Source of the DNA: an uncultured Rikenellaceae bacterium
GTDB taxonomy: Bacteria > Bacteroidota > Bacteroidia > Bacteroidales > VadinHA17
Reading direction: 5' to 3'
Length of the DNA stretch: 64,000 nucleotides
NCBI GenBank assembly: GCA_964421975.1
Contig: CAYQZL010000004.1
Location: 818 to 64,817, forward strand
Each line of letters starts with the position of its first letter. Position 1 is the first letter of the stretch. The translations under genes were made by a program, and so were the position numbers. The notes beneath the pieces were generated by a model. The model was not told the DNA's origin. It searched no databases and saw only the letters and a program-made list of their open reading frames with translations. Below, piece by piece: positions 5,033 to 58,109 of the stretch.

Positions 5033-6969
5033 TATCTTAGTACTTTTTTAATGAATATCTCGTCGGGATATCCTCTTCTGATCAGTTCAAGCCTCCATGC
5101 CTTTGCCTCATCCTGTGTACTGAACTGGCCGGTAGTGTACCTGTAAAATCTGTCCTTCTCATTAAACATTACTTTGATATCAGCAATGTACCTGAAATAA
5201 CTGATGTCAACAGGGTTATACAATGCCATCACCTGGACAGTATAGTATAGTACTCCCGGCTCGTCAGCGGAATCAGTTATATTGAGCACATTCAGGTTCC
5301 TTATGAGCATGCTTGAATCAACCGAAGCAACCGATGGTATTCCTGCCAGATTTATTCTTTCATACTCAGCTTCGATCAGTGAAGAGTCTCTCATTAGGAG
5401 TATATCACCCAGAGTTATAAGCAGATCGGGGCTGTCGGCTTTGATTGTGGTATCAATTGTCGATGGCAGGTATCCCTCTCCCGAGAAAACTATCCGGAAT
5501 TCTCCGGGAGCCACTGTAAGATTGTATGATCCTGATTGTTTGTCGGGAGATGTTCTGTAGAGTGTTTCTCCCGATGTTCTGTTAAGCACAGCCACATAAC
5601 AATTTTTCTCCCCTGCAGAAGTTGTATCATCAAGCCTTATCCGTCCTGTTATTTCATATATCTGATTCACATCAGGCCCGCTTAATCCAAGATAGAAAAT
5701 ATCTCTTTTCTTATAATCAGTTTTCATGGAATAATAAGCGTTGATCCCGTTGTTGGCAGGCTGGAAAAACTTGTCATCATCGGTTGAATTGACCGGTGAT
5801 CCCAGGTTCTCCGGCTTGTCCCATCCCGGGCCTGTTATCCGGCTTTTGAAATTATCGAATCCGCCCATCGAATTATGACCTTCCGAACAGAAATATAATA
5901 AGGAATCATTGGCTGTTATGAAAGGATTATCCTCGTTATATGCAGTATTTACCGTAACTCCCAGGTTAAGCGGAATACCCCAGTCGCCTGTGGCATCAAT
6001 TTCAGATACATAAATATCCAGTCCTCCCTGTCCGCCTTCCCTGTTACTTGTGAAATAAAGCTTCTTGCCGTCAGCAGACACGGATGCATGCGATTCATAG
6101 AATTTTGTATTTATATTCCTGTTGAGCCTGGTGATGGGTGTCCAGTTATCATTCACATATTTTGAAGAATAAATATTTCCGTCAAAATCATCATTCTTAT
6201 AGATGAAAAGTTCTGTTCCGTCATTATTGAGAGAGCATGTAGAGCAATCTTCTCCCGCGTTCAGCTGTTCGGTTATTTCAACCGGTGTCTGCCAGCGGCC
6301 TCTTATTCTTTTGGAGAAATAGATCACATTTACCAGTCCTCGTCTTTCAGTATAGGCAATTGTGTTTCCATCGAAACTTACAACGGGATTTTCATTCATG
6401 GATCCCTGACTGAATTCTTCTCCGAGCATACGTTTACTCAGAGGCACAGGATTTTCAGCATATGACCTTGCATTTTCGCAGGCCAGTATCTGCTGGTCGA
6501 CAAACGCAAGGTTTTCGATGCCGCCTTTTGATTCTGTTTCCTGTGCAAGTGTCTTGAACTGTCTGAAAGTGGCAAGGCTCTTCTCATATTCATTATTGAT
6601 CATATAGGCCCGGGCAAGATAAAACCATGCATCAAGAGGAGCTCTTTCTTCTTTCAGGGATTTCGTTTTTGCATTATAACTTGCGTTTTTGACCGCTTCC
6701 TCAAGATAGGGAACAGCCTTTTCCTTTTCATCCGGAATATTCAGATAACATGTCCCGATTTTGTACTTCAGATTCATGTTTTCCGGATCTTCCAGCAGTA
6801 TATAGAGCTGGTTTGCCAGATCATATTCCTCGTACAGATAATGAGCTTCAGCCTGTTTATAGAGTTCCCTGATCTCTTTTGCAGATTGAGAACAGACAAC
6901 AACAGGAATAAAAATCAGAGTTAACAGCTGAAGTTTTAGGATCCGTGAATTTACTCTGAAACTATTCAT
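5032..6969 (-). CDS. Envelope protein P2: TPR + PD40 propeller + CarboxypepD_reg-like + SPOR-like C-terminus (paralog 2 of 4)
   Basis: 645 aa with a signal peptide. TPR core NMNLKYKIGTCYLNI. Propeller blade ESHASVSADGKKLYFTSNREGGQGGLDIYVS. C-terminus YYTVQVMALYNP...YRYTTGQFSTQDEAKAWRLELIRRGYPDEIFI is SPOR-like. Its stop overlaps the P1 start (TAATG). Confidence 0.8.
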   Translation of the reverse strand: MNSFRVNSRILKLQLLTLIFIPVVVCSQSAKEIRELYKQAEAHYLYEEYDLANQLYILLEDPENMNLKYKIGTCYLNIPDEKEKAVPYLEEAVKNASYNAKTKSLKEERAPLDAWFYLARAYMINNEYEKSLATFRQFKTLAQETESKGGIENLAFVDQQILACENARSYAENPVPLSKRMLGEEFSQGSMNENPVVSFDGNTIAYTERRGLVNVIYFSKRIRGRWQTPVEITEQLNAGEDCSTCSLNNDGTELFIYKNDDFDGNIYSSKYVNDNWTPITRLNRNINTKFYESHASVSADGKKLYFTSNREGGQGGLDIYVSEIDATGDWGIPLNLGVTVNTAYNEDNPFITANDSLLYFCSEGHNSMGGFDNFKSRITGPGWDKPENLGSPVNSTDDDKFFQPANNGINAYYSMKTDYKKRDIFYLGLSGPDVNQIYEITGRIRLDDTTSAGEKNCYVAVLNRTSGETLYRTSPDKQSGSYNLTVAPGEFRIVFSGEGYLPSTIDTTIKADSPDLLITLGDILLMRDSSLIEAEYERINLAGIPSVASVDSSMLIRNLNVLNITDSADEPGVLYYTVQVMALYNPVDISYFRYIADIKVMFNEKDRFYRYTTGQFSTQDEAKAWRLELIRRGYPDEIFIKKVLR

Positions 6970-17087: not shown

Positions 17088-17171
17088 TCACTTCTTTCCT
17101 CCCCATCTCTCACCGCTCACCTCTCATCTCTCATCTCTCATCGCTAATCTCTCACCCCTCACTCCTCACCC
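17088..17171. repeat. Degenerate CTCACCT/CTCATCT heptamer tract (left flank of the nested inverted-repeat element)
   Basis: The sequence reads ctcaccgctcacctctcatctctcatctctcatcgctaatctctcacccctcactcctcacc. Confidence 0.85.
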
Positions 17172-17582
17172 CATAGCCGTCAACATAAGCAATATTTTAG
17201 TTACAATAACAACTGTAATTATCTGGATTTTAACTAAATAAATTTCCCCTCCTTTCAAAGGAGGGGTGGCCGGGATTACTAATTTTGAAGCGTTTACAAT
17301 TGTCCTTTCCCCGGCCGGGGTGGTTGATCTTTGTTGTCTTCTGAACTTGCTTCCCTCAGGATTTTTTGACTTTAATTGATTCCATAAAGCGGATTCTGGA
17401 GAAGTGGAATTATTTCTCAGAATTTAATTAACCACCCCGGCCAGACAATATAAATTTCTGCAAGTCCGACGATTTCTGCGTCTGGCCACCCCTCCTTGAA
17501 AAAAGGAGGGGAAATGTATGTTCGTATATACCTCTTAATTACAGTAGTTTTCGTTGTTGATATACTTTAGTTGACGGCTATG
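17172..17582. repeat. Nested inverted-repeat element of about 411 bp, non-coding (MITE-like, inverton-like or structured RNA)
   Basis: Perfect 13-bp termini: catagccgtcaac at 17172-17184 and gttgacggctatg at 17570-17582. Two collinear inner arm pairs are present. The first is atttcccctcctttcaaaggaggggtggccgg (17242-17273) against ctggccacccctccttgaaaaaaggaggggaaat (17482-17515). The second is ccccggccggggtggtt (17310-17326) against ttaaccaccccggccag (17428-17444). No ORF of 60 aa or more lies inside. Confidence 0.8.
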
Positions 17583-17668
17583 CTCCTCAGCACTCGACAC
17601 TCACCACTCACCTCTCACCTCTCACCTCTCACCGCTCACCTCTCACCGCTCACCTCTCACCTCTCACC
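17583..17668. repeat. CTCACCT/GCTCACC heptamer tract (right flank), in the same orientation as the left tract
   Basis: The sequence reads cactcaccactcacctctcacctctcacctctcaccgctcacctctcaccgctcacctctcacctctcacc. It contains the alaS stop codon and the last codons of alaS. Confidence 0.85.
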
Positions 17669-20299
17669 TATGTGTTCCCTGACATATTTTTCAGCTCTCA
17701 TTATGGCATTCTGAATACCTCCGGGATTCTTACCACCGGCAGTTGCGAGGAAAGGCTGACCACCACCTCCGCCGTTTATTTCACCTGCAATTTCCCGGAT
17801 GATATCTGTGGCGCTCAGATCCTTTTCCTTTACCAGACGGTCACTGACCATGACAATCAGACTGGCTTTATCTCCGATCGGGGACCCAAGTACCGCGATA
17901 CTGTCAGCGGGTATTTTCCTTAATTCAAAAGCAATTGATTTTAGGGTTTCGGCAGAATCAGTTTCTATCTGACCACTTATAAATTTGAAATCATTAATTT
18001 GCCGGGCTTTTTCAATAAGATCCCTGATGATATCTCCGGCAATCCGGGATTTATATTTTTCGACCGTTTTCCTGAGAGATGCATTTTCAGTTAAAAGCTT
18101 TTCCACGCTTTCCCTGGCGCTCCCGGTGCTCTTAAGAAGTGATGCAATATCTTCAAGTTCCGATATCTTTTCATTCACATATTCGTCGGCTTCGGGTCCT
18201 GTTACCGCTTCTATCCTTCTGACTCCGGCTGCAATGGCGCTTTCGGATATTATTTTGATAAGTCCGATACCGGATGTTGATTCGACATGAGTGCCTCCGC
18301 ACAGTTCAACTGAATCTCCGAAGCGGACCACTCTTACCGTATCACCGTATTTTTCCCCGAAAAGTGCCATAGCTCCCATGGAAAGAGCTTCTTTCAGCGG
18401 TATGTTTTCAGTCACCTCTTTTGTGAAATTCTCCCTTACCAGTTGGTTGGCAATGCTTTCAACCGCGAGTATCTCTTCCCTGGTGAGTTTGCTGAAATGG
18501 CTGAAATCGAACCTTAGCCGGCCGGGTGTTACGAGTGAACCTTTCTGTTCAACATGTGATCCCAGGACTTTTCTCAGTGCATAATGAAGAAGGTGGGTGG
18601 CAGTATGGTTATTGGCTGCCATTTTACGCTTAGCCTCATCAACGGTTGCAGTGAATCCTGCATCGGGGTGGGAGGGAGCTTTCTTTGTGAGATGTATTAT
18701 CAGATCATTCTCCTTTATTGTATCATTGATCTCAATTTTTTCGAATTCCGAGACAATAATACCTGTATCGCCTGCCTGTCCGCCTGATTCTGCATAAAAA
18801 GGTGTTCTGTCGAATACAAGCTGGCATATCTCCTTTCCTTTGGTTTTTACAACACGGTATTTTGTAATCAGGATATTATCCACCGTCCTGTCATATCCCG
18901 TAAATACCGTATCATCGTTTTCCCTTATTATTATCCAGTCGCCTGCATCCAGTATGCCGTCTGCTCTCGACCGGTCTTTCTGATTCTTCATTTCTGTTTC
19001 GAATCCTTCTGTATCCAGAGTCATGCCATTCTCTTTCAGAATAAGCTGGGTCAGGTCAGCGGGAAATCCATAGGTATCGTAGAGCTCAAAAGCGATTTTC
19101 CCTGACAGGATACTTTCATTCTTCTCCTTAAGATCAGAGATCATCTTATCTATCATCCTGAGGCCTTTCCCCAGGGTTTTTAGAAAAGCTGTTTCTTCTT
19201 CAAAGATTATTTTAGATATCTGTTCTCCTGAAGATTTCAGTTCAGGATACTGATCTCCCATTACTGAAGCAAGTGCGGGGACAAGCTTATACATGAATGG
19301 TTCATCAGTGCCGAGGTAGTTATAAGCATACCTTACGGCTCTCCTGAGTATCCTGCGTATTACATATCCGGCTTTATTATTGGATGGAAGCTGCCCGTCG
19401 GCTATTGAAAATGAGACTGCCCTGAGATGATCCGCTATAACCCTCATGGCAGTATCCTGTTCCTCGTTCCTGCCATATTCCTTGCCGGTGAGGACACATA
19501 TTTCCTTAATTACGGACTGAAAAATATCTGTATCATAATTTGATTTTTTCCCCTGAACGACCATGCACAGTCTTTCAAAGCCCATACCCGTATCAACATG
19601 CCTGTCGGGCAACAGTTCAAGTGATCCGTCGGCTTTGCGTTTATACTGAATAAATACAAGGTTCCATACTTCTATTACCAGGGGATGTCCTTTATTAACA
19701 AGAGTGTGTCCGGGTATCTTTTTTCTTTCGGAGTCATCACGTATGTCCACATGGATCTCGGAGCATGGGCCACAGGGGCCGGTATCTCCCATCTCCCAGA
19801 AATTGTCTTTTTTCGATCCTTCAAGTATCCTGTCCGGATCTGCCTGAAAACACTTCTGCCACCAGCTGTATGCTTCATCATCACGCGGTACATTTTCTGA
19901 GGGACTTCCGGTAAAGATGGTTGCATACAGCCTGTCTGCCGGTATACCCAGTCTGCCGTTAAGGAATTCCCAGGCCCATTCTATGGCTTCCTTCTTGAAA
20001 TAATCGCCGAAAGACCAGTTCCCCAGCATCTCGAACATTGTATGATGATAAGTGTCATGTCCCACTTCTTCAAGATCGTTGTGCTTGCCTGAAACCCTGA
20101 GACATTTCTGTGAATCGGCAATCCTCCTGTACTTAGGCTGCATATTGCCCAGAAATATATCCTTGAACTGGTTCATTCCGGCATTTGTGAACATCAGAGT
20201 CGGATCATTCTTGATTACCATCGGGGCAGATGATACTATCTCATGTCCTTTTTCCCGGAAAAAGTCAAAGAATAACTGCCTCAGTTGCTGTGATTTCAT
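17657..20299 (-). CDS. alaS: Alanine--tRNA ligase
   Basis: FTNAGMNQFKD, editing-domain HTATHLLH, and C-terminal DHHA1-type GGGGGQP. The ATG at 20299 (MKSQQLRQLFFDFF) is preferred over the track start at 20332. Confidence 0.95.
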   Translation of the reverse strand: MKSQQLRQLFFDFFREKGHEIVSSAPMVIKNDPTLMFTNAGMNQFKDIFLGNMQPKYRRIADSQKCLRVSGKHNDLEEVGHDTYHHTMFEMLGNWSFGDYFKKEAIEWAWEFLNGRLGIPADRLYATIFTGSPSENVPRDDEAYSWWQKCFQADPDRILEGSKKDNFWEMGDTGPCGPCSEIHVDIRDDSERKKIPGHTLVNKGHPLVIEVWNLVFIQYKRKADGSLELLPDRHVDTGMGFERLCMVVQGKKSNYDTDIFQSVIKEICVLTGKEYGRNEEQDTAMRVIADHLRAVSFSIADGQLPSNNKAGYVIRRILRRAVRYAYNYLGTDEPFMYKLVPALASVMGDQYPELKSSGEQISKIIFEEETAFLKTLGKGLRMIDKMISDLKEKNESILSGKIAFELYDTYGFPADLTQLILKENGMTLDTEGFETEMKNQKDRSRADGILDAGDWIIIRENDDTVFTGYDRTVDNILITKYRVVKTKGKEICQLVFDRTPFYAESGGQAGDTGIIVSEFEKIEINDTIKENDLIIHLTKKAPSHPDAGFTATVDEAKRKMAANNHTATHLLHYALRKVLGSHVEQKGSLVTPGRLRFDFSHFSKLTREEILAVESIANQLVRENFTKEVTENIPLKEALSMGAMALFGEKYGDTVRVVRFGDSVELCGGTHVESTSGIGLIKIISESAIAAGVRRIEAVTGPEADEYVNEKISELEDIASLLKSTGSARESVEKLLTENASLRKTVEKYKSRIAGDIIRDLIEKARQINDFKFISGQIETDSAETLKSIAFELRKIPADSIAVLGSPIGDKASLIVMVSDRLVKEKDLSATDIIREIAGEINGGGGGQPFLATAGGKNPGGIQNAIMRAEKYVREHIGER

Positions 20300-20371
20300 A
20301 TTTTTTTTCTTATACATGTAACATTTCGTCAAACTCTTCGTAAATTGGTTTGTAAAATTAAATTATTTGTT

Positions 20372-21477: not shown

Positions 21478-22449
21478 ATGCCAAAGTCAAAATATAAATT
21501 CAATCCTGATTCCCTGAGCTTTGACAAAGTTACGCTCGGAGCAAGGGATCTCCTTCTCAGGCTTCTGGCCTTCTTTGTGGGATCACTTCTGATAGCTGTA
21601 GTTTATTATGTGGTCTTTGCCCTTTTCTTTAATTCACCAAAGGAAAAAGCAATGCTCAGAGAGATAGAACAGCTTACACTGCAGTACGAAATAATCCAGA
21701 GGGATATGGGAAATCTGGAAAAAGTGATAGTACAGCTGCAGGAAACAGATGACAATCTTTACAGGACCATCTTTGAAGCAGAACCCATACCAATAACACT
21801 TCGTGAAGGAGGAGTAGGGGGTGTGAACAGATATAAGGAACTGGAGGGTTTCAATAATTCGGATATTGTGGTCGAAACAGCCAAAAAGCTCGACAAGCTC
21901 AGGAAACAGGTCTATATCCAGTCAAAATCATTCGACGAACTTATTAATCTGTCCAGGAGGAAAGAAGATATGCTCGCTGCAATACCGGCAATTCTTCCGA
22001 TCAGCAATAAAGACCTGACAAGAACTGCATCTGGATTTGGCAACAGGGTTCATCCGATCTATAAGATTATTAAATTCCATGCCGGCATGGACTTTACTGC
22101 TCCTACCGGAACCGAAATATATGCCACGGGAAACGGCAGGATTGAAACAGTCAATTCATCTAAAAGAGGCCTTGGAAATCATATTATTGTCGACCATGGA
22201 TTCGGTTATTCAACAGTCTATGCCCATCTCGACAGATTCAATATCCGGCAGGGACAAAAGGTTAAAAGAGGAGATGTGATCGGATATGTAGGTAATACAG
22301 GTCTGTCGGTTGCACCACACCTTCACTATGAGGTCAAGCTCAACGGGGTGAATGTCGATCCGGTCAATTACTATTTCAATGACCTTTCTCCGGAAGAATA
22401 CGAACGCATGATCGAAATAGCTTCCAAAACAGGCCAGTCCTTTGATTAA
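21478..22449 (+). CDS. M23 (LytM-domain) peptidase, membrane-anchored, paralog B
   Basis: 323 aa. N-terminal TM helix, FHAGMD (HxxxD) and APHLHYEV (HxH). Confidence 0.8.
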   Translation: MPKSKYKFNPDSLSFDKVTLGARDLLLRLLAFFVGSLLIAVVYYVVFALFFNSPKEKAMLREIEQLTLQYEIIQRDMGNLEKVIVQLQETDDNLYRTIFEAEPIPITLREGGVGGVNRYKELEGFNNSDIVVETAKKLDKLRKQVYIQSKSFDELINLSRRKEDMLAAIPAILPISNKDLTRTASGFGNRVHPIYKIIKFHAGMDFTAPTGTEIYATGNGRIETVNSSKRGLGNHIIVDHGFGYSTVYAHLDRFNIRQGQKVKRGDVIGYVGNTGLSVAPHLHYEVKLNGVNVDPVNYYFNDLSPEEYERMIEIASKTGQSFD

Positions 22450-25975: not shown

Positions 25976-25995
25976 TGTTGACCAGTCAATAAAAA

Positions 25996-26055
25996 ATATG
26001 TATTAAAATATGTATTAAAATATGTCTTTTAATATGTCTTTTAATACGTAGACGC
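25996..26055. repeat. 12-bp tandem repeat (atatgtattaaa x2, atatgtctttta x2, plus a degenerate fifth unit) upstream of hutU
   Basis: Read directly: units at 25996, 26008, 26020 and 26032, with a partial unit at 26044. Confidence 0.9.
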
Positions 26056-26101: not shown

Positions 26102-28111
26102 ATGGAAGACATTATTTTCAGAAAGAGCATCACCGAAGGCATCCCTGCGGTTTTACCTCCCCCGAAGCCTTATGAAAAAAACATAAACCATGCCCCGGCA
26201 AGAAAGGATATTCTTACTGCAGGGGAGAAAAAACTCGCTGTCAGGAATGCCCTGAGATATTTTCCTGAGGAATTTCATACAGTTCTGGCACCCGAATTCG
26301 CCGGAGAGCTTACGGAATACGGGAGAATTTATATGTACAGGTTCCGTCCCGGATATGAAATGAAAGCACGGCCGGTATCTGAAATTCCCCACAGGTCACT
26401 GAAGGCAGCTGCGATTATGATGATGATACTGAATAATCTCGATCCTGCTGTTGCCCAGCATCCGCATGAACTGATAACTTACGGAGGTAACGGCGCGGTA
26501 TTCCAGAACTGGGCACAATATCTTCTGACTATGAAGTATTTGTCGGAAATGACAGATGACCAGACACTTGTAATGTATTCAGGACATCCCCTGGGTTTGT
26601 TTCCTTCACATAATGATGCTCCGAGAGTCGTTGTAACAAACGGAATGGTCATCCCAAACTATTCCTCACAGGATCACTGGGAAAAATTCAATGCACTTGG
26701 AGTATCTCAGTACGGGCAGATGACTGCCGGCTCATTCATGTATATCGGTCCTCAGGGTATTGTTCACGGGACCACAATTACACTTCTCAATGCGGGAAGG
26801 AAAATAAGTAGTGGCGATAACAGTTTTAAAGGGAAACTCTTTGTTTCATCAGGTCTGGGGGGAATGTCGGGGGCACAACCAAAAGCAGCATCGATTGCCG
26901 GTATGACATCAGTTATCGCCGAAATAAATCCCAGGGCAATGAAAAAAAGGTATGAACAGGGATGGGTCGATGAGGTGATAACCGGTCCTGACAGACTTGT
27001 GGCAAGAAGCATGAATGCCGTAAAAAAACATGAGACGATATCAATCGGTTACCTTGGCAATATAGTGGATGTATGGGAAAAATTTGCTGATGAGGGCATT
27101 ATGGTTGATATCGGATCTGATCAGACTTCTCTTCATAATCCCTGGGCAGGAGGCTATTATCCGGCCGGACTTACATTCGAAGAATCTGTACGTATGATGA
27201 CGACTGATCCTGAAGAGTTCAGGAAAAGAGTAAAGTCATCTCTCGTCAGGCAGGTTGATGCGATCAACAGGCATACTGCACGGGGAACTTATTTCTTCGA
27301 TTATGGTAATGCCTTTCTTCTGGAAGCTTCACGCGCAGGTGCTGATATATTACAACCCGGTGGGAGCTTCAGGTATCCTTCATATGTTCAGGATATTATG
27401 GGACCAGTCTGTTTTGATTACGGTTTTGGTCCCTTCAGATGGATTTGCTGTTCAAATGATCCGGAAGATCTGAAAATCACAGATACTGTTGCAATAAATG
27501 TACTTGAGGATCTGAAGAAGGATTCGCCGGCTGAAATAAGCCGCCAGATGGCTGATAATATTCACTGGATAAGAGAAGCAGGCAGGAACCGCCTGGTAGT
27601 TGGTTCCCAGGCAAGGATACTTTATGCTGATGCTGCAGGAAGGATTTCAATTGCAGAGGCATTTAACAAAGCAGTCGCATCAGGAAAAATATCCGCTCCG
27701 GTTGTAATCGGGAGGGATCATCATGATGTTTCGGGTACTGATTCTCCGTTCAGGGAAACTTCGGATATTTACGACGGTTCAAAATTTACGGCAGACATGG
27801 CTGTCCAGAATGTGATCGGAGATGCCTTCCGCGGAGCTACCTGGGTCTCGTTGCATAACGGAGGCGGAGTTGGATGGGGCGAAGTCATAAACGGGGGATT
27901 CGGTATGGTGATTGATGGTACAGAGGAAACTTTACAAAAGATAAGACTGATGCTCCACTGGGATGTAAACAATGGTATTGCCAGAAGAAGCTGGGCCAGG
28001 AACAAAGGGGCAATATTTACTCTTAAAAGAGAAATGGAACGGACACCGGGGCTTAAGGTTACAATTCCGCATATCGCTGATGACAAAATAATTGATCAGG
28101 CATTCAGGTAA
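26102..28111 (+). CDS. hutU: Urocanate hydratase (long form)
   Basis: 669 aa. YGGNGAVFQNWAQY, MTAGSFMYIGPQGIVHGT and GLGGMSGAQP. Confidence 0.9.
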   Translation: MEDIIFRKSITEGIPAVLPPPKPYEKNINHAPARKDILTAGEKKLAVRNALRYFPEEFHTVLAPEFAGELTEYGRIYMYRFRPGYEMKARPVSEIPHRSLKAAAIMMMILNNLDPAVAQHPHELITYGGNGAVFQNWAQYLLTMKYLSEMTDDQTLVMYSGHPLGLFPSHNDAPRVVVTNGMVIPNYSSQDHWEKFNALGVSQYGQMTAGSFMYIGPQGIVHGTTITLLNAGRKISSGDNSFKGKLFVSSGLGGMSGAQPKAASIAGMTSVIAEINPRAMKKRYEQGWVDEVITGPDRLVARSMNAVKKHETISIGYLGNIVDVWEKFADEGIMVDIGSDQTSLHNPWAGGYYPAGLTFEESVRMMTTDPEEFRKRVKSSLVRQVDAINRHTARGTYFFDYGNAFLLEASRAGADILQPGGSFRYPSYVQDIMGPVCFDYGFGPFRWICCSNDPEDLKITDTVAINVLEDLKKDSPAEISRQMADNIHWIREAGRNRLVVGSQARILYADAAGRISIAEAFNKAVASGKISAPVVIGRDHHDVSGTDSPFRETSDIYDGSKFTADMAVQNVIGDAFRGATWVSLHNGGGVGWGEVINGGFGMVIDGTEETLQKIRLMLHWDVNNGIARRSWARNKGAIFTLKREMERTPGLKVTIPHIADDKIIDQAFR

Positions 28112-28148
28112 TAGAAAATTCTGATTTGGATGAGACTTTTATTAGTTA

Positions 28149-28239
28149 CACAGAGTTACACAGAGGGTTCACAGAGTTTCACAGAGTTTCAAAGTATTAA
28201 CCTCTGTGGCCCTCTGTGAATCCTCTGTGTAACTCTGTG
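28149..28239. repeat. 4+4 word-hairpin array: (CACAGAG)x4 in 10/11/10-bp register, a 15-nt loop, then (CTCTGTG)x4
   Basis: CACAGAG at 28149, 28159, 28170 and 28180. CTCTGTG at 28202, 28212, 28223 and 28233. The outer 17 bp pair perfectly (cacagagttacacagag with ctctgtgtaactctgtg). The array sits between the convergent hutU and ispF genes and abuts the ispF stop. Confidence 0.9.
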
Positions 28240-28725
28240 TTATTTCTTAAAATTCTCCAGTAATACAGAAGCCATTGCCGCTATACCTTCCTCACGACCG
28301 ACAAATCCCATTTTTTCTGTAGTAGTGGCTTTAACTGATACAGCATCAATATTAATGCCGAGGATCGATGAAATAACCGATCTCATTTCGTGAATGTACG
28401 GGGCTATTTTTGGTTTCTCCAGACAGACGGTGCTGTCGATATTGATGACTGAAAATCCTTTTTCCCTTATTATTTCCAATGTTCTTTTAAGGAGTATCTT
28501 GCTGTCAATATTCCTGAATTCCGGGCTGGTATCGGGGAAATGATGTCCGATATCTCCAAGTGCTGCTGCACCGAGCATTGAATCGCATATAGCATGCAGA
28601 AGAACATCACCATCGGAATGAGCCACGCAGCCTTTATCCGATGGTATCAGGATACCTCCGAGCCATAATTTTAAACCTGTTTCGAGCCGGTGGAAGTCAA
28701 TACCCTGACCTGTCCTCAGGTTCAT
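28240..28725 (-). CDS. ispF: 2-C-methyl-D-erythritol 2,4-cyclodiphosphate synthase
   Basis: 161 aa. GIDFHR, HSDGDVLLHA and GDIGHHFPD. Its start overlaps the porV stop (ATGA). Confidence 0.95.
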   Translation of the reverse strand: MNLRTGQGIDFHRLETGLKLWLGGILIPSDKGCVAHSDGDVLLHAICDSMLGAAALGDIGHHFPDTSPEFRNIDSKILLKRTLEIIREKGFSVINIDSTVCLEKPKIAPYIHEMRSVISSILGINIDAVSVKATTTEKMGFVGREEGIAAMASVLLENFKK

Positions 28726-43329: not shown

Positions 43330-44664
43330 TTATAGCAGCTTGCTGGCCAGTTCTGCAAGATAGCTGCGTTCTCCTTTCACAAGATTAACATGTGCAAAAA
43401 TATCCTGGTTCTTCATTTTATCCGACAGATAGCTTAATCCGTTTGAAGCCGTATCGAGGTAAGGGGAGTCGATCTGTTCAATATCTCCGGTAAAAACCAT
43501 TTTGGTGCCTTCTCCGGCACGGGTAATTATTGTTTTTATCTCATGAGGGGTAAGATTCTGGGCTTCATCCACTATGAAAAAGATGCTCGAAAGGCTTCTT
43601 CCCCTTATGTAGGCTAAAGGAGTGATCACAAGCTTTTCCTCTTTCATCATATCATTGATCCTTAGGAATTCAGGACTCTGATGACTGAATTTATGCTTGA
43701 TAACGGTAAGATTATCATAAAGTGGCTGCATATAAGGATCCATCTTTTCCTTAACATCACCCGGAAGGAAACCCAGATCGCGGTTTGCAAGCGGAACGAT
43801 GGGCCTCGCCAGGAAGATCTGCTTGTATCTTTTATGCTGTGCCAGTGCAGCTGCAAGCGCGAGAAGAGTCTTTCCCGTTCCTGCTTTGCCTGTAAGGGAT
43901 ACCAGCTGTACGTCTGGATTGGACAGTGCATCAATTGCAAAAGTCTGTTCCGCATTCCTTGGATCAATTCCGTATGTGGTCTGTTTTATCACCCTGTTCA
44001 GGAGTTTGTTAGCAGGATTATAATGTGCAAGTGCACTTGAACCATTATTCTTCATGATGAAGAACTGGTGCCCTTTCAGTTCAGGATCCAGACTGAACTC
44101 CGATGCACTTACCCCTTCCGGATAATCATATAACTTGCTGATCAGCGATTGATCCATACCTTCAATGACAGTAATGCCTTTATAAAGATCATCTATGTTT
44201 GCAACCTTGTCATTCTGATAGTCCTGAGCCACAATACCGAGGGATTTGGCTTTCATCCTCAGATTGATGTCTTTCGTTATCAGGACCACGGATTTGTTTT
44301 TATTGGCAGTGCAGACATAATCGGCAATTGCCAGGATACGATGATCTGAAGTCCTTTCGGGGAATGACTGGCTCACTTTATCCGAAAAGTCCTTTCCCGT
44401 CTCAATGTGAAGATTTCCCAGGTTTTCCCCCAGCGGAATATTGGCTGTAAGAAGCATGTCTCCCGATAATTTGTCAAGTTCCCTTGTAAACTCCCTGGCA
44501 TGAAAATTTATCTGATCATTTCCTTTTTTAAATTTGTCGAGTTCCTCCAATACTACTATGGGAATGATAACATCATTCTCCTCGAAATTGTAAATGCACT
44601 TGTAATCATGTAAAAGAACATTCGTGTCAATTATGAACAGTTTTTTATTATGTTTTTTCGGCAT
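43330..44664 (-). CDS. PhoH-family ATPase with an N-terminal PIN domain (YlaK-like)
   Basis: PIN motif FIIDTNVLL, Walker A GKAGTGKT and Walker B IFFIVDEAQN. The ATG at 44664 is preferred over the TTG track start at 44685. Confidence 0.85.
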   Translation of the reverse strand: MPKKHNKKLFIIDTNVLLHDYKCIYNFEENDVIIPIVVLEELDKFKKGNDQINFHAREFTRELDKLSGDMLLTANIPLGENLGNLHIETGKDFSDKVSQSFPERTSDHRILAIADYVCTANKNKSVVLITKDINLRMKAKSLGIVAQDYQNDKVANIDDLYKGITVIEGMDQSLISKLYDYPEGVSASEFSLDPELKGHQFFIMKNNGSSALAHYNPANKLLNRVIKQTTYGIDPRNAEQTFAIDALSNPDVQLVSLTGKAGTGKTLLALAAALAQHKRYKQIFLARPIVPLANRDLGFLPGDVKEKMDPYMQPLYDNLTVIKHKFSHQSPEFLRINDMMKEEKLVITPLAYIRGRSLSSIFFIVDEAQNLTPHEIKTIITRAGEGTKMVFTGDIEQIDSPYLDTASNGLSYLSDKMKNQDIFAHVNLVKGERSYLAELASKLL

Positions 44665-44722
44665 GTTTAAGAACTTAATTATCAAATTGATACAATATCA
44701 ATCCTCCTCCGGAGGTGAATTG

Positions 44723-44730
44723 CAAAAATA
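44723..44730 (-). promoter_or_regulatory. Candidate -7 box (TATTTTTG on the minus strand) for the PhoH/PIN gene
   Basis: The + strand reads CAAAAATA. It lies about 59 nt upstream of the ATG at 44664. Confidence 0.35.
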
Positions 44731-44780
44731 AAGAAAATATGGGATTGTTGGTATGGATGTTGAAAGTTAGTTATTTTGTA

Positions 44781-44825
44781 GTACTTAAAGTATTTAAAGT
44801 ACTTAGAGTACTTAGAGTACTTAGA
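44781..44825. repeat. 9-bp tandem repeat x5 (gtacttaaa, gtatttaaa, gtacttaga x3)
   Basis: Read directly from the sequence. Confidence 0.9.
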
Positions 44826-44870
44826 GTTTTTAACGTGGAACTCCGCTTTCGCCAGGGCTTAGGCTGGCAA

Positions 44871-44950
44871 ACACTGAAACACTGAAACACTGAAACTCTG
44901 AAACTCTGAAACACTGAAACTCTGAAACTCTGAAACACTGAAACTCTGAA
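44871..44950. repeat. 8-bp tandem repeat x10 (A = acactgaa, B = actctgaa, order AAABBABBAB), ending 10 nt before the folC ATG
   Basis: Read directly. An eleventh partial unit (acataatg) follows. Confidence 0.9.
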
Positions 44951-44960
44951 ACATAATGTA

Positions 44961-46250
44961 ATGAATTACAAAGAAACAATTGAATATTTATACAGCCGGT
45001 TGCCGGCGTATCACAGGATAGGGAAGGCGGCTTATAAGAACAATCTTGATAATACACTCGCCCTTGATGATTATTTCGGGCATCCTCACAGGAAATACCA
45101 GTGTATCCATATTGCCGGAACCAATGGAAAGGGTTCAGTCTCACATATGACTGCTTCAATACTTATGGAAGCCGGTTACATTACCGGGCTTTATACTTCA
45201 CCACATCTCAGGGATTTCAGGGAAAGGATAAAAATTGATGGAAAAATGATCCCGGAGGAAGAAGTTATAAGGTTTGTTGATATTCACAGAAGTATCATTG
45301 AGTCTGTGAAACCATCTTTTTTTGAAGTGACGGCAGCAATGGCTTTTGATTATTTCATGCGGGAAAAAGTGGATGTGGCAGTTATTGAAACAGGAATGGG
45401 AGGGAGGCTCGATTCAACGAACATAATAACACCTGTTGTCTCTGTAATTACAAATATCGGGCATGATCATATGGATCTGCTTGGTGATACATTTGAAAAA
45501 GTTGCACGGGAAAAAGCGGGGATCATCAAAAAAAATATTCCGGTTGTTATAGGAGAGACACATCCTGAGACAGCGGGAGTTTTTACTGCAGCAGCAGGAT
45601 TAGCGGGATCAGAAATCTCTTTTGCCGATCAGTCCTTTCGATGTCTTCCTGCTGATGTTACCGATGATATGGAAGATAATCTATTTTCTGTTGAGTCTCT
45701 GAAAGACGGTAGAAAAACAAAAATCATCTTACCCCTGGGTGGTAATTACCAGGCTAAAAATATCCAGACTGTTTTTCAGCTTTTCAGCTTCCTTAAGGGC
45801 CATTATCAGATAAATGAAAAGACAGTTAAGGAAGGTTTGGGAAAGGTTATTTCCAATACCGGTCTTATGGGACGCTGGCAGATATTGAAGAAGCAGCCTC
45901 TGGTCATTTGTGACACAGGGCATAACAGGGAAGGACTGGAATATGTGACCAGACAGTTGGAGAAAATGAATATTAAACGGATGCATATTGTTCTCGGTTT
46001 TGTAAGCGACAAAGATCTCTCTCTTGTCCTCCCTCTGTTTCCGGTTAAGGCGCAATATTATTTCACGAAAGCATCAGTCCCCCGTGCACTTGACGAAAAG
46101 ATACTTCAGAAAGAGGCTCAGACTTTTGGTCTCAGCGGAGAGTGTTACAATACGGTGGATGATGCCTATAAATCAGCACTGAGCAATGCTTCAACCGAAG
46201 ATCTTATATTTATCGGCGGAAGTACCTTTGTAGTGGCGGAAGTATTGTAA
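44961..46250 (+). CDS. folC: Folylpolyglutamate synthase/dihydrofolate synthase
   Basis: 429 aa. P-loop AGTNGKGS, TSPHL, and the Mur-ligase-like layout. Confidence 0.85.
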   Translation: MNYKETIEYLYSRLPAYHRIGKAAYKNNLDNTLALDDYFGHPHRKYQCIHIAGTNGKGSVSHMTASILMEAGYITGLYTSPHLRDFRERIKIDGKMIPEEEVIRFVDIHRSIIESVKPSFFEVTAAMAFDYFMREKVDVAVIETGMGGRLDSTNIITPVVSVITNIGHDHMDLLGDTFEKVAREKAGIIKKNIPVVIGETHPETAGVFTAAAGLAGSEISFADQSFRCLPADVTDDMEDNLFSVESLKDGRKTKIILPLGGNYQAKNIQTVFQLFSFLKGHYQINEKTVKEGLGKVISNTGLMGRWQILKKQPLVICDTGHNREGLEYVTRQLEKMNIKRMHIVLGFVSDKDLSLVLPLFPVKAQYYFTKASVPRALDEKILQKEAQTFGLSGECYNTVDDAYKSALSNASTEDLIFIGGSTFVVAEVL

Positions 46251-53157: not shown

Positions 53158-53224
53158 TCTTTATCCTATCAATACTTGAAAGATGATTCTATTTTGTATA
53201 TTTTTAAGTGAATTAAATCAGAGT

Positions 53225-54661
53225 ATGAACAATACAGCTATTAACCCGGTTCCCGTATTAACTTTCGGGCTTATCGGAAACTTACTGCTTTCGTGTTCCT
53301 CCGGGACCGGTAAAACTGAGAGAAACACATCAGGACCTAACCTGATTTATGTTTTTGCCGATCAATGGAGGGCCGAAGCAACAGGGTATTCAGGGAACAG
53401 GCAGGTCAGAACGCCGAATCTTGACAGACTTGCAGGAGAATCGGTAAATTTCGTAACGGCAATTTCAAACTGTCCTGTAAGCAGCCCGGCCAGAGCTTCG
53501 ATGATGACAGGTCAGTATCCTCTTACTCATGGAATCTTCTTCAACGATAAACCTTTGGGGGATGACAGAATTTCTATAGCTGAAATTTATCGTGAACATG
53601 GATATAATACCGCCTATATCGGTAAATGGCATCTGAACGGGCATCCGAAAGGAGAGAGCCGCGACGAACACCGAAAATTACCTGTGCCATCTGAAAGACG
53701 TCAGGGTTTTGATTACTGGAAGGTACTTGAATGTACACACGATTATAATAATTCACTTTATTATGATAATGACAATGTTCAACATATCTGGCAGGGATAT
53801 GATGCAGAGATTCAGACCGATTCTGCAATAGCTTATATCAGGGCCGGAAAAGATTCACCATTTATACTGTTTTTATCCTGGGGGCCGCCTCATGAACCAT
53901 ATCATACAGCACCAGACAAATACAGGGATATGTATTCTGACTGGCAGAGTATACTGTTACGTCCAAATGTTCCTGACAGCTTGTCGGAGAGAGCAAAAAA
54001 AGATATTGCAGGTTATTATGCCCATATCGCAGCCCTTGATGAATATCTGGGAAAAATACTGGCTGCCGTAAAAGAATCAGGTATTGAAGAAAATACCATC
54101 TTCGTATTTACCAGTGACCATGGGGATATGCTTTTATCGCATGGTTTGACAAAAAAACAGAAACCATGGGATGAATCAATAAGAGTTCCTTTGCTGCTCA
54201 GGTATCCCTTAAAGATAAAAAAAGCCCGGAAAGTAAAAATCCCTTTCGGTACAGTGGATATTATGCCAACATTGCTTGGACTGAGTGGTTTGCCTGTACC
54301 GGATGGGGTCGAAGGAACAGATTTCTCTGATTATCTGTTGGGTAAGAACAAACCGGATATAAAATCAACACTGATAATGTGCCCCGTTCCTTTTCACCAA
54401 TGGAGTTTTGATAACGGAGGTAAAGAATACCGGGGTGTCAGGACAGAAAGATATACCTTTGCAAGAGATCTGAATGGTCCCTGGTTGTTATATGATAATA
54501 AAACTGATCCTTTTCAGATGAAAAACCTGGTAAATAAGGTTGACTATAAAAAGATACAGAATGAACTTGAAGTTGAACTGAACCGGTTACTGGATAAATC
54601 AGGAGACAAATTTATGGAAGCGGATTATTACATGAAAAAATGGAATTATGATTACGATTAA
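53225..54661 (+). CDS. Sulfatase family S1 lipoprotein, Ser-type
   Basis: The ATG at 53225 gives MNNTAINP... with the lipobox LLSCSSG. Signature CPVSSPARASMMTGQYP places Ser at the formylglycine position (SxPxR). DHGD is present. Confidence 0.85.
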   Translation: MNNTAINPVPVLTFGLIGNLLLSCSSGTGKTERNTSGPNLIYVFADQWRAEATGYSGNRQVRTPNLDRLAGESVNFVTAISNCPVSSPARASMMTGQYPLTHGIFFNDKPLGDDRISIAEIYREHGYNTAYIGKWHLNGHPKGESRDEHRKLPVPSERRQGFDYWKVLECTHDYNNSLYYDNDNVQHIWQGYDAEIQTDSAIAYIRAGKDSPFILFLSWGPPHEPYHTAPDKYRDMYSDWQSILLRPNVPDSLSERAKKDIAGYYAHIAALDEYLGKILAAVKESGIEENTIFVFTSDHGDMLLSHGLTKKQKPWDESIRVPLLLRYPLKIKKARKVKIPFGTVDIMPTLLGLSGLPVPDGVEGTDFSDYLLGKNKPDIKSTLIMCPVPFHQWSFDNGGKEYRGVRTERYTFARDLNGPWLLYDNKTDPFQMKNLVNKVDYKKIQNELEVELNRLLDKSGDKFMEADYYMKKWNYDYD

Positions 54662-54783
54662 CGCGGCCTCTGTATAAGTTTATTATCAAAATATTCAGAC
54701 AAAACACAACAACTAAAGGCAATCCGGCTTTATATTTGGAGTTTTAAATTTCCCTCTGAATACCAATGGGAGCTTTAAAAAAC

Positions 54784-54880
54784 CTTTGTGTCCCTTTGTG
54801 TGTACTTTGTGTCCTTTGTGGTTATAAAGCATTGTTGTTTAACCACAAAGAGCACTAAGGAAATCACAAAGAGCACAATG
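54784..54880. repeat. 4+4 word-hairpin array, CACAAAG variant: (CTTTGTG)x4, a 17-nt loop, then CACAAAG/CACTAAG/CACAAAG/CACAATG
   Basis: CTTTGTG at 54784, 54794, 54805 and 54814. The inverted words are at 54844, 54853, 54865 and 54874. The inner 10-bp stem is perfect (ctttgtggtt with aaccacaaag). Confidence 0.9.
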
Positions 54881-54941
54881 GGGTAGTAATTATTTTACTA
54901 TGCATTTAAGGATAATATTTTGATTTATAAATAGATAAAAG

Positions 54942-56093
54942 ATGGGAAAGAAAAGAAGCATTGAGGAGATCAACGGGAAGATCCGCAGCGGAAAAGCTGT
55001 GGTTCTGACTGCTGAACAGGTATCAGCTATGGCAAAAAAAATGACCCCTGCAGAGGTATTCGACAGGGTTGATGTGGTAACAACAGCAACATTCGGACCT
55101 ATGTGCTCGTCGGGTGTTTTTATCAATTTTGGTCATACCACTCCTCCTATGCGCATGGAAAGGATAACACTTAATAACGTTCCCGCATATGGCGGAATAG
55201 CTGCTGTTGATGCATATCTTGGAGCTACAGAAACAGCGATGCCACAGGATGAATATGGAGGCGCGCATGTTATTGAGGAACTTATTGCCGGAAAGGATGT
55301 TCTGCTTCAGGCTTCTGCGAAAGGGACAGATTGTTACCCCAGGACTGAATTAAAGACTCTGATAAACAAAAGCACGATCAATGAATTCATAATGTTCAAT
55401 CCGCGGAACGCTTATCAGAACTATAATGTTGCGGTAAACAGTACAAAAAAGATCAAATACACCTACATGGGTACTCTTCTTCCCTCATTCGGGAATGCAA
55501 ATTTCTCGACTTCGGGTGAACTGAGCCCCCTCCTTAATGATCCTGAACTGCGGACAATAGGGATAGGAACAAGGATCCTTATGGGAGGTACCATAGGATA
55601 TGTTGCCTGGCACGGGACGCAATTCAACACCGGAAAACCTTTGAATGAAAACGGTATTCCGGTCGGTAATGCTGCAACCCTGGCACTTATAGGTGATGCA
55701 AAACAGATGAGCACGAGGTTCATAAAAGCAGCATATTTCGAAAAATACGGTGTGTCAATGTTCGTTGGAATAGGGATACCGGTTCCCGTTATTGATGATG
55801 ATATGGCCCGCAGGGTCTCTGTCTGCAACCGCCAGATAGAAACCAATGTTATGGATTACGGATCGGAAAATCACGATATACTGGGACGTGCCGATTATGA
55901 ATCCCTTTTCTCCGGAAAAATTCGTCTGGATGGGAAAATGATACGTACAGCACCTCTGTCGAGTGTTAAAATAGCACGCGAAATTGCTGATATCCTCAGA
56001 AATGAAATTGCCTCGGGCCGGTTTTTACTTACTCAGCCGGTTTCATCTTTCACTAAGACAAGCGGACTGAATAGTCTGGAGATCAGAATTTGA
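54942..56093 (+). CDS. DUF39/COG1900 homocysteine biosynthesis protein (MA1821-like)
   Basis: 383 aa. VDVVTTATFGPMCSSG, GGAHVIEELIAGK and NPRNAYQNY... are typical of the COG1900 family. No CBS domains. Confidence 0.8.
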   Translation: MGKKRSIEEINGKIRSGKAVVLTAEQVSAMAKKMTPAEVFDRVDVVTTATFGPMCSSGVFINFGHTTPPMRMERITLNNVPAYGGIAAVDAYLGATETAMPQDEYGGAHVIEELIAGKDVLLQASAKGTDCYPRTELKTLINKSTINEFIMFNPRNAYQNYNVAVNSTKKIKYTYMGTLLPSFGNANFSTSGELSPLLNDPELRTIGIGTRILMGGTIGYVAWHGTQFNTGKPLNENGIPVGNAATLALIGDAKQMSTRFIKAAYFEKYGVSMFVGIGIPVPVIDDDMARRVSVCNRQIETNVMDYGSENHDILGRADYESLFSGKIRLDGKMIRTAPLSSVKIAREIADILRNEIASGRFLLTQPVSSFTKTSGLNSLEIRI

Positions 56094-57834: not shown

Positions 57835-57922
57835 ATCATTTCCGGGAACCAGCTTCTTCCCCTCTTTATGTTCTTTTGTGATCGCCCTGGTGCCCTACTA
57901 TATAACTAATTTAAAAAACTTA

Positions 57923-58042
57923 CACAGAGATCCACAGAGGTTCACAGAGATCCACAGAGAATCGATTTACTAACTCTGTGGAACTCTGTGACTTTTTCAC
58001 CCACCGAAGCCTTGGCGCAGGTGGGCTCTGTGGGACTCAGTG
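57923..58042. repeat. 4+4 word-hairpin array (CACAGAG x4 at an exact 10-bp period) whose right arm is split by a 35-bp insert carrying its own hairpin
   Basis: CACAGAG at 57923, 57933, 57943 and 57953. CTCTGTG at 57974, 57984 and 58026, and CTCAGTG at 58036. The insert at 57991-58025 contains cccacc...ggtggg. Confidence 0.9.
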
Positions 58043-58109
58043 TAATTGAGAGTTATTTTTTTTGATGTTCCCATTTTTTATTGATGGGTGTAAACTTCGT
58101 GGCAAATTC

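Follow-up and report, generated by a model that had tools for sequence, protein, structure and literature searches.

In Beggiatoaceae, cyanobacteria and five Bacteroidetes, repeats of the heptamer TAACTGA are found just ahead of start codons, ending within a few bases of them; a role in translation has been proposed for these repeats, yet their function is not established (MacGregor 2015, PMC4679880). In Moraxella catarrhalis, variable AGAT repeats in the 5' untranslated region of uspA2 set expression, as was shown by experiment (Attia and Hansen 2006, as summarized in PMC4679880). Here we describe two short tandem arrays lying directly upstream of folC, the gene for dihydrofolate synthase / folylpolyglutamate synthase, in a 64,000 nucleotide (nt) stretch from an uncultured Rikenellaceae bacterium (contig CAYQZL010000004.1 of assembly GCA_964421975.1). 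This whole stretch is hereafter called the window, and its own numbering is used throughout. Judged by sequence comparison with related genomes, the arrays are part of a clade-wide, folC-specific feature, the position of which is conserved while its repeat units turn over. We found no paper on folC-linked repeats, and the supplement of PMC4679880 makes no mention of folC.

Anatomy of the arrays upstream of folC

The folC gene occupies 44961..46250 on the plus strand (TIGR01499, 366 bits against a cut-off of 163), and alignment of the FolC N-terminus starts at residue 1 in all relatives. The array more distant from the gene, here termed the 5' array, spans 44780..44827 (+) and is evident both in the sequence and to Tandem Repeats Finder (TRF), which called 44780-44827 with a period of 9, 5.3 copies and 92% matches. 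It is built of the 9-bp units AGTACTTAA, AGTATTTAA and AGTACTTAG, read as gtacttaaa, gtatttaaa and then three times gtacttaga at 44781-44825, with a degenerate sixth unit behind them. A spacer at 44828..44868 (+) follows, measuring 45 bp when counted between the unit blocks 44781-44825 and 44871-44950, in which sequence and folding place a small GC hairpin (gccag at 44851-44855, ctggc at 44864-44868). The 3' array, which adjoins the ATG, spans 44869..44953 (+), again in the sequence as well as in the TRF call (44869-44953, period 8, 10.6 copies, 92% matches). Its 8-bp units are of two kinds, ACACTGAA (A) and ACTCTGAA (B), of which ten stand at 44871-44950 in the order AAABBABBAB. In unit notation the arrays of the folC leader are written (ACUGAAAC)10 and (AGUACUUAG)5. 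TRF also called the 3' array with a period of 24 (3.5 copies, 95% matches) and a score above that of the period-8 call, in line with expansion of an ABB block, as a first-pass annotation of the stretch had supposed for a 24-bp block.

The same annotation had described two perfect arrays that fill the intergenic region. Both arrays are real by sequence and by TRF, but neither is perfect, since each has two or three unit variants, and together with the spacer they take up only ~174 of the ~296 intergenic bp; the rest belongs to the PhoH2 leader and to a divergent promoter core that relatives conserve. With TRF scores of 68-80 for the 9-bp array and 135-149 for the 8-bp array, both are arrays of 5-11-nt units longer than chance. 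Degenerate patterns of two units matched the window 5 and 10 times where chance predicts 0.13 and 0.29, a >30-fold excess. Within the 64-kb window the 9-mer pattern occurs in the folC leader only, and the 8-mer pattern has one other match, with 2 mismatches, at 20089.

After the 3' array comes acataATGtaATG, with the folC ATG at 44961. The distance from the end of the array to the ATG is 7-10 nt, and the intervening acataatgta contains no GGAGG-like site. A minimal upstream ATG-TAA (ATGTAATG) can be read in the sequence at 44956..44961 (+), its stop sharing the last A with the folC ATG. Three of the related loci considered below (L006, L008 and L088) have ATGTTATGA upstream of folC instead, a two-codon frame whose stop likewise overlaps the folC start. 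Such frames may provide a putative start-stop or reinitiation coupling with folC. A search with the covariance models of Rfam 15 found nothing that reached the gathering score anywhere in the window, and over 44650-45000 nothing even at E <= 1. Open reading frames (ORFs) that cross the arrays (56, 55 and 109 aa) were considered for coding potential and rejected as translated repeats without support.

The arrays and their promoter core in related Bacteroidales

For comparison, 80 folC loci were gathered from species-representative genomes and 80 from metagenomes, representing uncultured Bacteroidales of soil, sediment, fen and sludge. The nearest FolC was 69% identical in the genome scan and 67% in the metagenome scan, and a protein search gave relatives at 84% (L166) and 77% (L167). 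Repeats that TRF reported in the 250 nt before folC were counted as an array when they had a period of 6-12 and no fewer than 3 copies. Arrays so defined are present in 50/159 related loci, at a density of 3.1 per kb, whereas the remaining non-coding DNA of these loci has 0.32 per kb, and the adjacent PhoH2 leader has none in the relatives compared. Thirty-one loci have an array ending 1-17 nt before the ATG, with a period that is without exception 7 (16 loci) or 8 (15 loci). The units are lineage-specific and include AAACMCTG, AACTCCA/AACTCAC, CCTGAYG, CACCTTG, GATTGCAY, GACCGCAA, GACCGAA, ACCCAGM, ACCAAGG, GAACYTT and ACCACTA. Arrays of the GACCGCAA type were found in at least 8 FolC clusters with <70% mutual identity. 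They also occur where a same-strand nitroreductase-like gene precedes folC, there spanning from the stop codon of that gene to the folC ATG. Because this array type is present in both gene contexts, it belongs to folC and not to the divergent region.

Copy number and unit sequence differ between strains that are otherwise nearly identical. The pair L095 and L096, 99.92% identical in folC, has 13 versus 4 GACCGCAA-type units between identical flanks. At the same identity (99.92%), L008/L087 differ from L088 in the 5' units, in the 3' units and by an ~80-nt GC-rich hairpin element inside the array. L007 has 15.6 AACTCCA units versus none in L086 (98.1%), L046 has GATTGCAT x3 versus GACCGCAA x5 in L140 (97.4%), and L044, L050, L047 and L138 (96-98%) carry 4, 5, 4 and 9 copies of a 10-mer. 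Units number from 1.4, in L100, to 5.5 among L100, L026, L140 and L139, and from 1.4 to 17 over the relatives as a whole. These differences between strains of related species indicate that the arrays change length and unit by replication slippage. The first-pass annotation had judged the arrays prone to slippage and had asked for a comparison of strains; made here in relatives, the comparison agrees with it, in that copy number is not fixed (13 vs 4 units at 99.92%) and even the unit may differ. As for the species of the window itself, database records include the exact PhoH2-like protein but neither the exact FolC nor the exact downstream nucleotidase-like protein. Five independent short-read contigs of this species, 99.6-100% identical over 2.7-4.5 kb, all end inside the 9-bp array (at 44809 in three contigs, and at 44814 and 44827), which fits branching by copy number without proving it.

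Two observations on database records concern the same region. Many metagenome contigs end 46-165 nt upstream of folC (L087, L089, L102, L103, L121, L134 and L162 are examples), and the stubs of L087, L089 and L162 contain arrays or stop in one. In the databases, many FolC proteins exceed 429 aa by 10-55 residues, P0001, P0006, P0016 and P0036 among them; in P0001 (443 aa) the called start sits upstream, inside the leader.

The DNA on the far side of the arrays is conserved. In ~60 loci the divergent neighbour of folC is a PhoH2-like gene, and these loci share a back-to-back divergent promoter core made of two blocks, GCAAAAATAACTAAAAT and AAAGTATGTTAATTTG, 24-25 bp apart, which covers 44722..44778 in the window. 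The neighbour itself is a PIN+PhoH gene at 43330..44664 (-), taken from the ORF list and from Pfam PIN_4 and PhoH matches on the identical protein, for which NCBIfam PhoH2 is the top profile with a score under its cut-off. Its predicted -7 box, TATTTTTG on the minus strand (44723..44730), is an exact TAHHTTTG located 58 nt from the ATG; most relatives conserve the site as GCAAAAATAACTAAAAT, the reverse complement of a perfect Bacteroidota -7 element. The block AAAGTATGTTAATTTG, kept with 0-3 mismatches, ends in a -7-like box for folC at 44771..44778 (+), which reads TTATTTTG in the window and TTAATTTG in relatives. In Flavobacterium johnsoniae the G of TAHHTTTG lies at -5 and transcription begins 4-5 nt beyond it (PMC6847099). 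In L021, L028, L112, L061 and L078 the folC ATG lies exactly 4 nt past the box G ('TTTG tatt ATG'), and from this spacing a leaderless folC mRNA is predicted in these relatives. Across the clade, 4 to 234 nt separate the box from the ATG; in the window the figure is 182 nt, and both arrays lie within that stretch. From the conserved box just upstream of the arrays, together with the 4-nt spacing in those relatives, we infer that folC transcription most likely starts near 44783, giving a leader of ~178 nt that is largely made of repeats and includes both arrays. The first-pass annotation had placed the folC promoter inside or upstream of the arrays, with a leader made of repeats, and this can now be narrowed, as the block conserved in ~60 relatives ends in the box at 44771-44778, most likely upstream of both. 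Its further suggestion that the arrays tune promoter spacing is not supported, because they lie downstream of the -7 box and not between promoter elements. A sigma-70-type promoter scan was uninformative for Bacteroidota.

Two other genes of the window, 5032-6969 (-) and 21478-22449 (+), have a strict TAHHTTTG only 5-7 nt from the start codon. The predicted PhoH2 leader (44665-44718, minus strand) opens with the palindrome CCTCCGGAGG in the 44703-44715 region, a predicted 5'-proximal hairpin that pairs an anti-Shine-Dalgarno-like CACCUCC with GGAGGAGG and is unusual in a phylum that avoids Shine-Dalgarno sites.

Directly behind the folC box, a nine-mer of the form AGTRHYTRR stands in phase in 27/83 distinct leaders, versus 0.13 expected in shuffles. 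By this count the 5' nine-mer is conserved across the clade, unlike the fast-changing 3' units. Among the two relatives obtained by protein search, L166 has two nine-mers and a hairpin, and L167 has five AGTACTTAA-type nine-mers followed by AAACCCTG x4-5. Small GC-rich hairpins recur in or beside the arrays of relatives, for example in L008, L022 and L131. When the 3' units were compared with letter shuffles, GACC was found in 10/34 (P < 0.001), and among unique units AAC or ACC was found in 12/26 (P = 0.03) and shared 4-mers gave P = 0.16. A motif common to the 3' units is significant only when the recurrent GACCGCAA-type units are counted and is weak for unique units, and it was not retained.

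Folding, proposed mechanism and rival explanations

Folded alone, the 3' array is nearly unstructured, with a minimum free energy (MFE) of -1.3 kcal/mol over 107 nt (z = +1.1). The AGTACT within the nine-mer is palindromic, so the 5' array folds on itself into a predicted 5'-proximal hairpin. The two arrays are also partly complementary, AGAGU of the 5' array being predicted to pair with ACUCU of the B units. In the window's subclade the whole leader folds more stably than its shuffled versions do, with z at -2.3 to -2.4 in the window, -4.1 in L006, -3.1 in both L007 and L086, and -6.8 to -8.0 in L010, where the strong folding arises because (GAGTTTG)n exactly complements (AACTCCA)n. Base composition is skewed along the leaders, the 5' half being rich in G and the 3' half in C (p = 2e-5). 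In an in-silico series of unit numbers, the mean unpaired probability of positions -20 to +13 was 0.41 at 0 units, ~0.60 at 4-5 units and ~0.62 thereafter. Pairing of GACCGCAA with the 3' end of 16S rRNA, a molecule not encoded in the window, would come to only ~5 bp inside helix 45 and was rejected as chance.

The reading that we favour, and hold with about even confidence, is that folC has a variable leader driven by slippage, in which the 3' array acts as an unstructured spacer or decoy and the 5' array is a conserved element by the transcription start. Both arrays would then belong to the 5' leader of the folC mRNA, as the local version of a repeat leader that is specific to folC, old and fast-changing, and shared by an uncultured Bacteroidales clade. 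Such a leader would have three parts, namely a 9-nt array at its 5' end, a spacer with a small hairpin, and an array of the 7-8-nt type that ends a few bases before the AUG. Slippage would grow, shrink and swap the array units, the latest expansion in the window genome presumably being the 24-bp ABB block. Translation initiation in the phylum Bacteroidota relies on low structure and upstream adenines, not on Shine-Dalgarno pairing (PMC6847099). The 3' array, being unstructured and G-poor, may take up the pairing potential of the G/U-rich 5' array and leave the start region single-stranded. If it does keep the start region open, changes in copy number would amount to a graded tuning of FolC translation, one that would saturate at few units and not act as an on/off switch. 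The 5' nine-mer array by the transcription start would be a hairpin or a putative binding site. It is possible to go further and to see here an ancient, selected cis-regulatory device of Bacteroidales without Shine-Dalgarno pairing, in which a part of the initiation machinery that binds single-stranded RNA (an S1 or RRM/cold-shock-type protein) reads a 7-8-nt unit of the RRACC/RAAC type upstream of the AUG, the nine-mer array antagonises this by pairing, and slippage retunes the whole as a heritable and reversible translational rheostat on a folate enzyme; we think this unlikely.

Several points weigh against the favoured reading of a slippage-driven, translation-tuning leader. The closest relative, L166 (84% FolC), has no 3' array and other relatives are apparently leaderless, so the array is dispensable. 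The GC hairpins inside arrays look like junk gathering at a site that would tolerate it. The folC -7-like box has a T where an A is nearly invariant at -11. The median z is only -0.25 over all 69 leaders of at least 60 nt, and on that value a duplex between 5' and 3' arrays was dropped as a general rule, since it holds in the window's subclade and not clade-wide. The excess of C over G by the ATG was rejected as a sign of selection on the RNA, as it is the same in other genes of the window (p = 0.12). The modelled gain in accessibility of the start region is modest and comes from predicted folding only.

The strongest rival, somewhat improbable in our estimate but serious, is that the arrays are a neutral by-product of slippage. 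The leader would tolerate any length, from leaderless to >200 nt, and an array seeded in an ancestor would keep expanding, contracting and homogenizing while junk accrues. The dispensability of the array fits such neutral turnover (L166 has none, several relatives look leaderless and L100 has 1.4 units), as do the quick changes of unit and copy number between strains and the GC hairpin elements that sit inside arrays. The window holds other short-unit arrays too, which would make the genome repeat-prone in general, and heptamers are the commonest long simple repeats in bacteria and have been ascribed to polymerase slippage (Mrazek 2007, as cited in PMC4679880). However, neutral turnover has to contend with a tenfold array density over other non-coding DNA beside an adjacent PhoH2 leader without arrays, and with the tight placement of arrays in the 31 loci, 1-17 nt from the ATG and with no period other than 7 or 8. 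Furthermore, both the nine-mer and the GACCGCAA-type unit have been kept in FolC clusters only ~60-65% identical, a distance at which unconstrained intergenic DNA no longer aligns, and the array has moved with folC into a different gene context.

More doubtful still is a multi-site platform for a sequence-specific binder, whether of RNA (ribosomal protein S1, or a cold-shock or RRM-type protein) or of DNA (at an operator past the start site), that would regulate folC in the manner proposed for TAACTGA repeats or in that of TRAP on (G/U)AG repeats. This is possible chiefly for the nine-mer, given that AGTRHYTRR lies in phase by the predicted start site in 27/83 leaders. The 3' units share sub-motifs beyond shuffles (GACC 10/34; AAC or ACC 12/26 unique), and the window unit CTGAAAC resembles the CTGATAA of TAACTGA repeats, for which S1, Csp and CsrA have been proposed (PMC4679880). 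Yet the 3' units differ between loci at 97% folC identity (GATTGCAT vs GACCGCAA), their period flips between 7 and 8 and their copy number runs from 1.4 to 17, all of which sits poorly with a fixed recognition site. The 4-mers shared among unique units are not significant (P = 0.16), and both motifs are absent elsewhere in the 64-kb window save for the 2-mismatch match at 20089, giving no sign of a regulon.

Two further explanations are effectively excluded. Classical phase variation, in which repeat number would alter the spacing of promoter elements and turn folC on or off, is highly improbable; short-unit arrays do lie between divergent genes with a copy number that varies in relatives, but both arrays fall between the -7-like box and the ATG, neither separating promoter elements nor lying in coding sequence, a tract of 85 bp cannot serve as spacer in a promoter, the gene concerned is a housekeeping one, and relatives manage without the array. 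Least credible is an assembly artefact, for although repeats assemble poorly, short-read contigs break at the array and many metagenome contigs stop just upstream of folC, five separate samples agree on the beginning of the 9-bp array at 99.6-100% identity, dozens of independent assemblies, with contigs of hundreds of kb to several Mb among them, carry arrays at the orthologous site, and the internal order of A and B units is non-trivial.

Other repeats in the window and described repeat systems

Beyond what the first-pass annotation contained, the analysis yielded the clade-wide, folC-specific feature, the partial complementarity of the two arrays and further repeat hairpins in the window. 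At 28140-28245, between convergent genes, direct 10-bp units with CACAGAG (x4-5) are followed by inverted CTCTGTG (x4). The predicted fold is a long hairpin interrupted by bulges at regular intervals (MFE -64 kcal/mol, z = -13.4), probably a bidirectional terminator made up of tandem repeats, and its unit AGTTTCACAG is similar to the reverse complement (CAGAGTTT) of the 8-mer at folC. A second CACAGAG / CTCTGTG repeat hairpin, also between convergent genes, lies at 57918-58048 (z = -8.5), and a GC-rich hairpin, CCCACCGAAGCC..GCGCAGGTGGG at ~58000-58030, is inserted in its right arm. A related GC-rich element is found inside the folC array of L008 and L087, and this suggests a candidate small mobile or REP-like (repetitive extragenic palindrome) hairpin that lands in repeat arrays. 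The third repeat hairpin, at 54778-54885, consists of CTTTGTG and then inverted CACAAAG units (z = -6.1) and is located downstream of 53183-54661 and upstream of 54942-56093.

Direct heptamer arrays (CTCTCAC / CTCACCT, ~9 and ~10 copies) at 17104-17170 and 17600-17669 stand on either side of an element of ~400 bp in which inverted repeats are nested (17172-17189 / 17565-17582, and others). From its layout, the element looks like a small inverted-repeat element inserted in, or bordered by, a heptamer array. The array at 17600-17669 overlaps the 3' end of ORF 17657-20332 (-). Lastly, a 12-bp array of AAAATATGTATT x3.8 at 25993-26037 lies ~65 nt upstream of the gene 26102-28111, right after the terminator-like hairpin of the preceding gene.

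Direct repeats close to start codons are known from few phyla and their role is unexplained, and folC offers a cleaner handle on them. It is one housekeeping gene with every state from leaderless to a 234-nt leader, near-identical strains supply natural variants of copy number and unit, and the comparison has a fixed reference point in the conserved promoter. Should the arrays indeed tune translation, they would reveal how initiation rates are set in bacteria that lack Shine-Dalgarno pairing, and also that variation driven by slippage is not confined to surface or virulence genes. On the practical side, the arrays break short-read assemblies and mislead gene callers into N-terminal extensions of FolC.

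Among described systems, the TAACTGA repeats are of the closest kind. Both they and the folC array are short direct repeats in forward orientation that end a few nt before a start codon lacking a Shine-Dalgarno site. Both undergo insertion and deletion of whole units between strains (on the folC side seen in relatives such as L095/L096), neither is predicted to fold when taken alone, contigs often break at them, and the unit cores are alike, CTGA-AAC for folC and CTGA-TAA for TAACTGA. However, the folC units ACACTGAA and ACTCTGAA are 8 nt long and are not TAACTGA heptamers. TAACTGA repeats precede many genes, whereas the folC motif, within the 64 kb covered, belongs to a single gene and keeps a fixed position at one orthologous gene across the clade while its unit changes. 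The folC leader also has a second, conserved 9-nt array at its 5' end, partly complementary to the other.

The AGAT tract of uspA2, as cited in PMC4679880, lies between promoter and start codon, which is the placement predicted for the folC arrays. It has a strain-dependent copy number and a graded effect, one that for folC is a prediction and would involve no frame shift. Its unit is 4 nt and its gene encodes a surface virulence protein, in contrast to the 8- and 9-nt units ahead of a housekeeping folate enzyme, where the effect is only modelled. The short tandemly repeated heptamers (STRR) of cyanobacteria are comparable intergenic arrays. Long simple sequence repeats with 5-11-nt units (Mrazek 2007, as outlined in PMC4679880) resemble the folC arrays as longer-than-chance intergenic arrays of 7-10-nt units, several of which occur in the window. 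Unlike the arrays at folC, these repeats and the STRR are defined genome-wide by abundance and not by a fixed position in one gene's leader. TRAP binds 9-11 (G/U)AG repeats in Bacillus leaders, including that of a folate-operon gene. Here the likeness is one of layout only, with about ten short repeats in a leader that reach the start region of an adjoining folate-related gene, and the folC arrays differ in having no conserved triplet, a variable copy number and turnover of the unit. What is new at folC is that repeats are anchored to one housekeeping gene across a clade despite unit turnover, that they form a two-tier layout with a conserved 5' array, and that they offer a full series of leaders, from leaderless to a 234-nt repeat leader.

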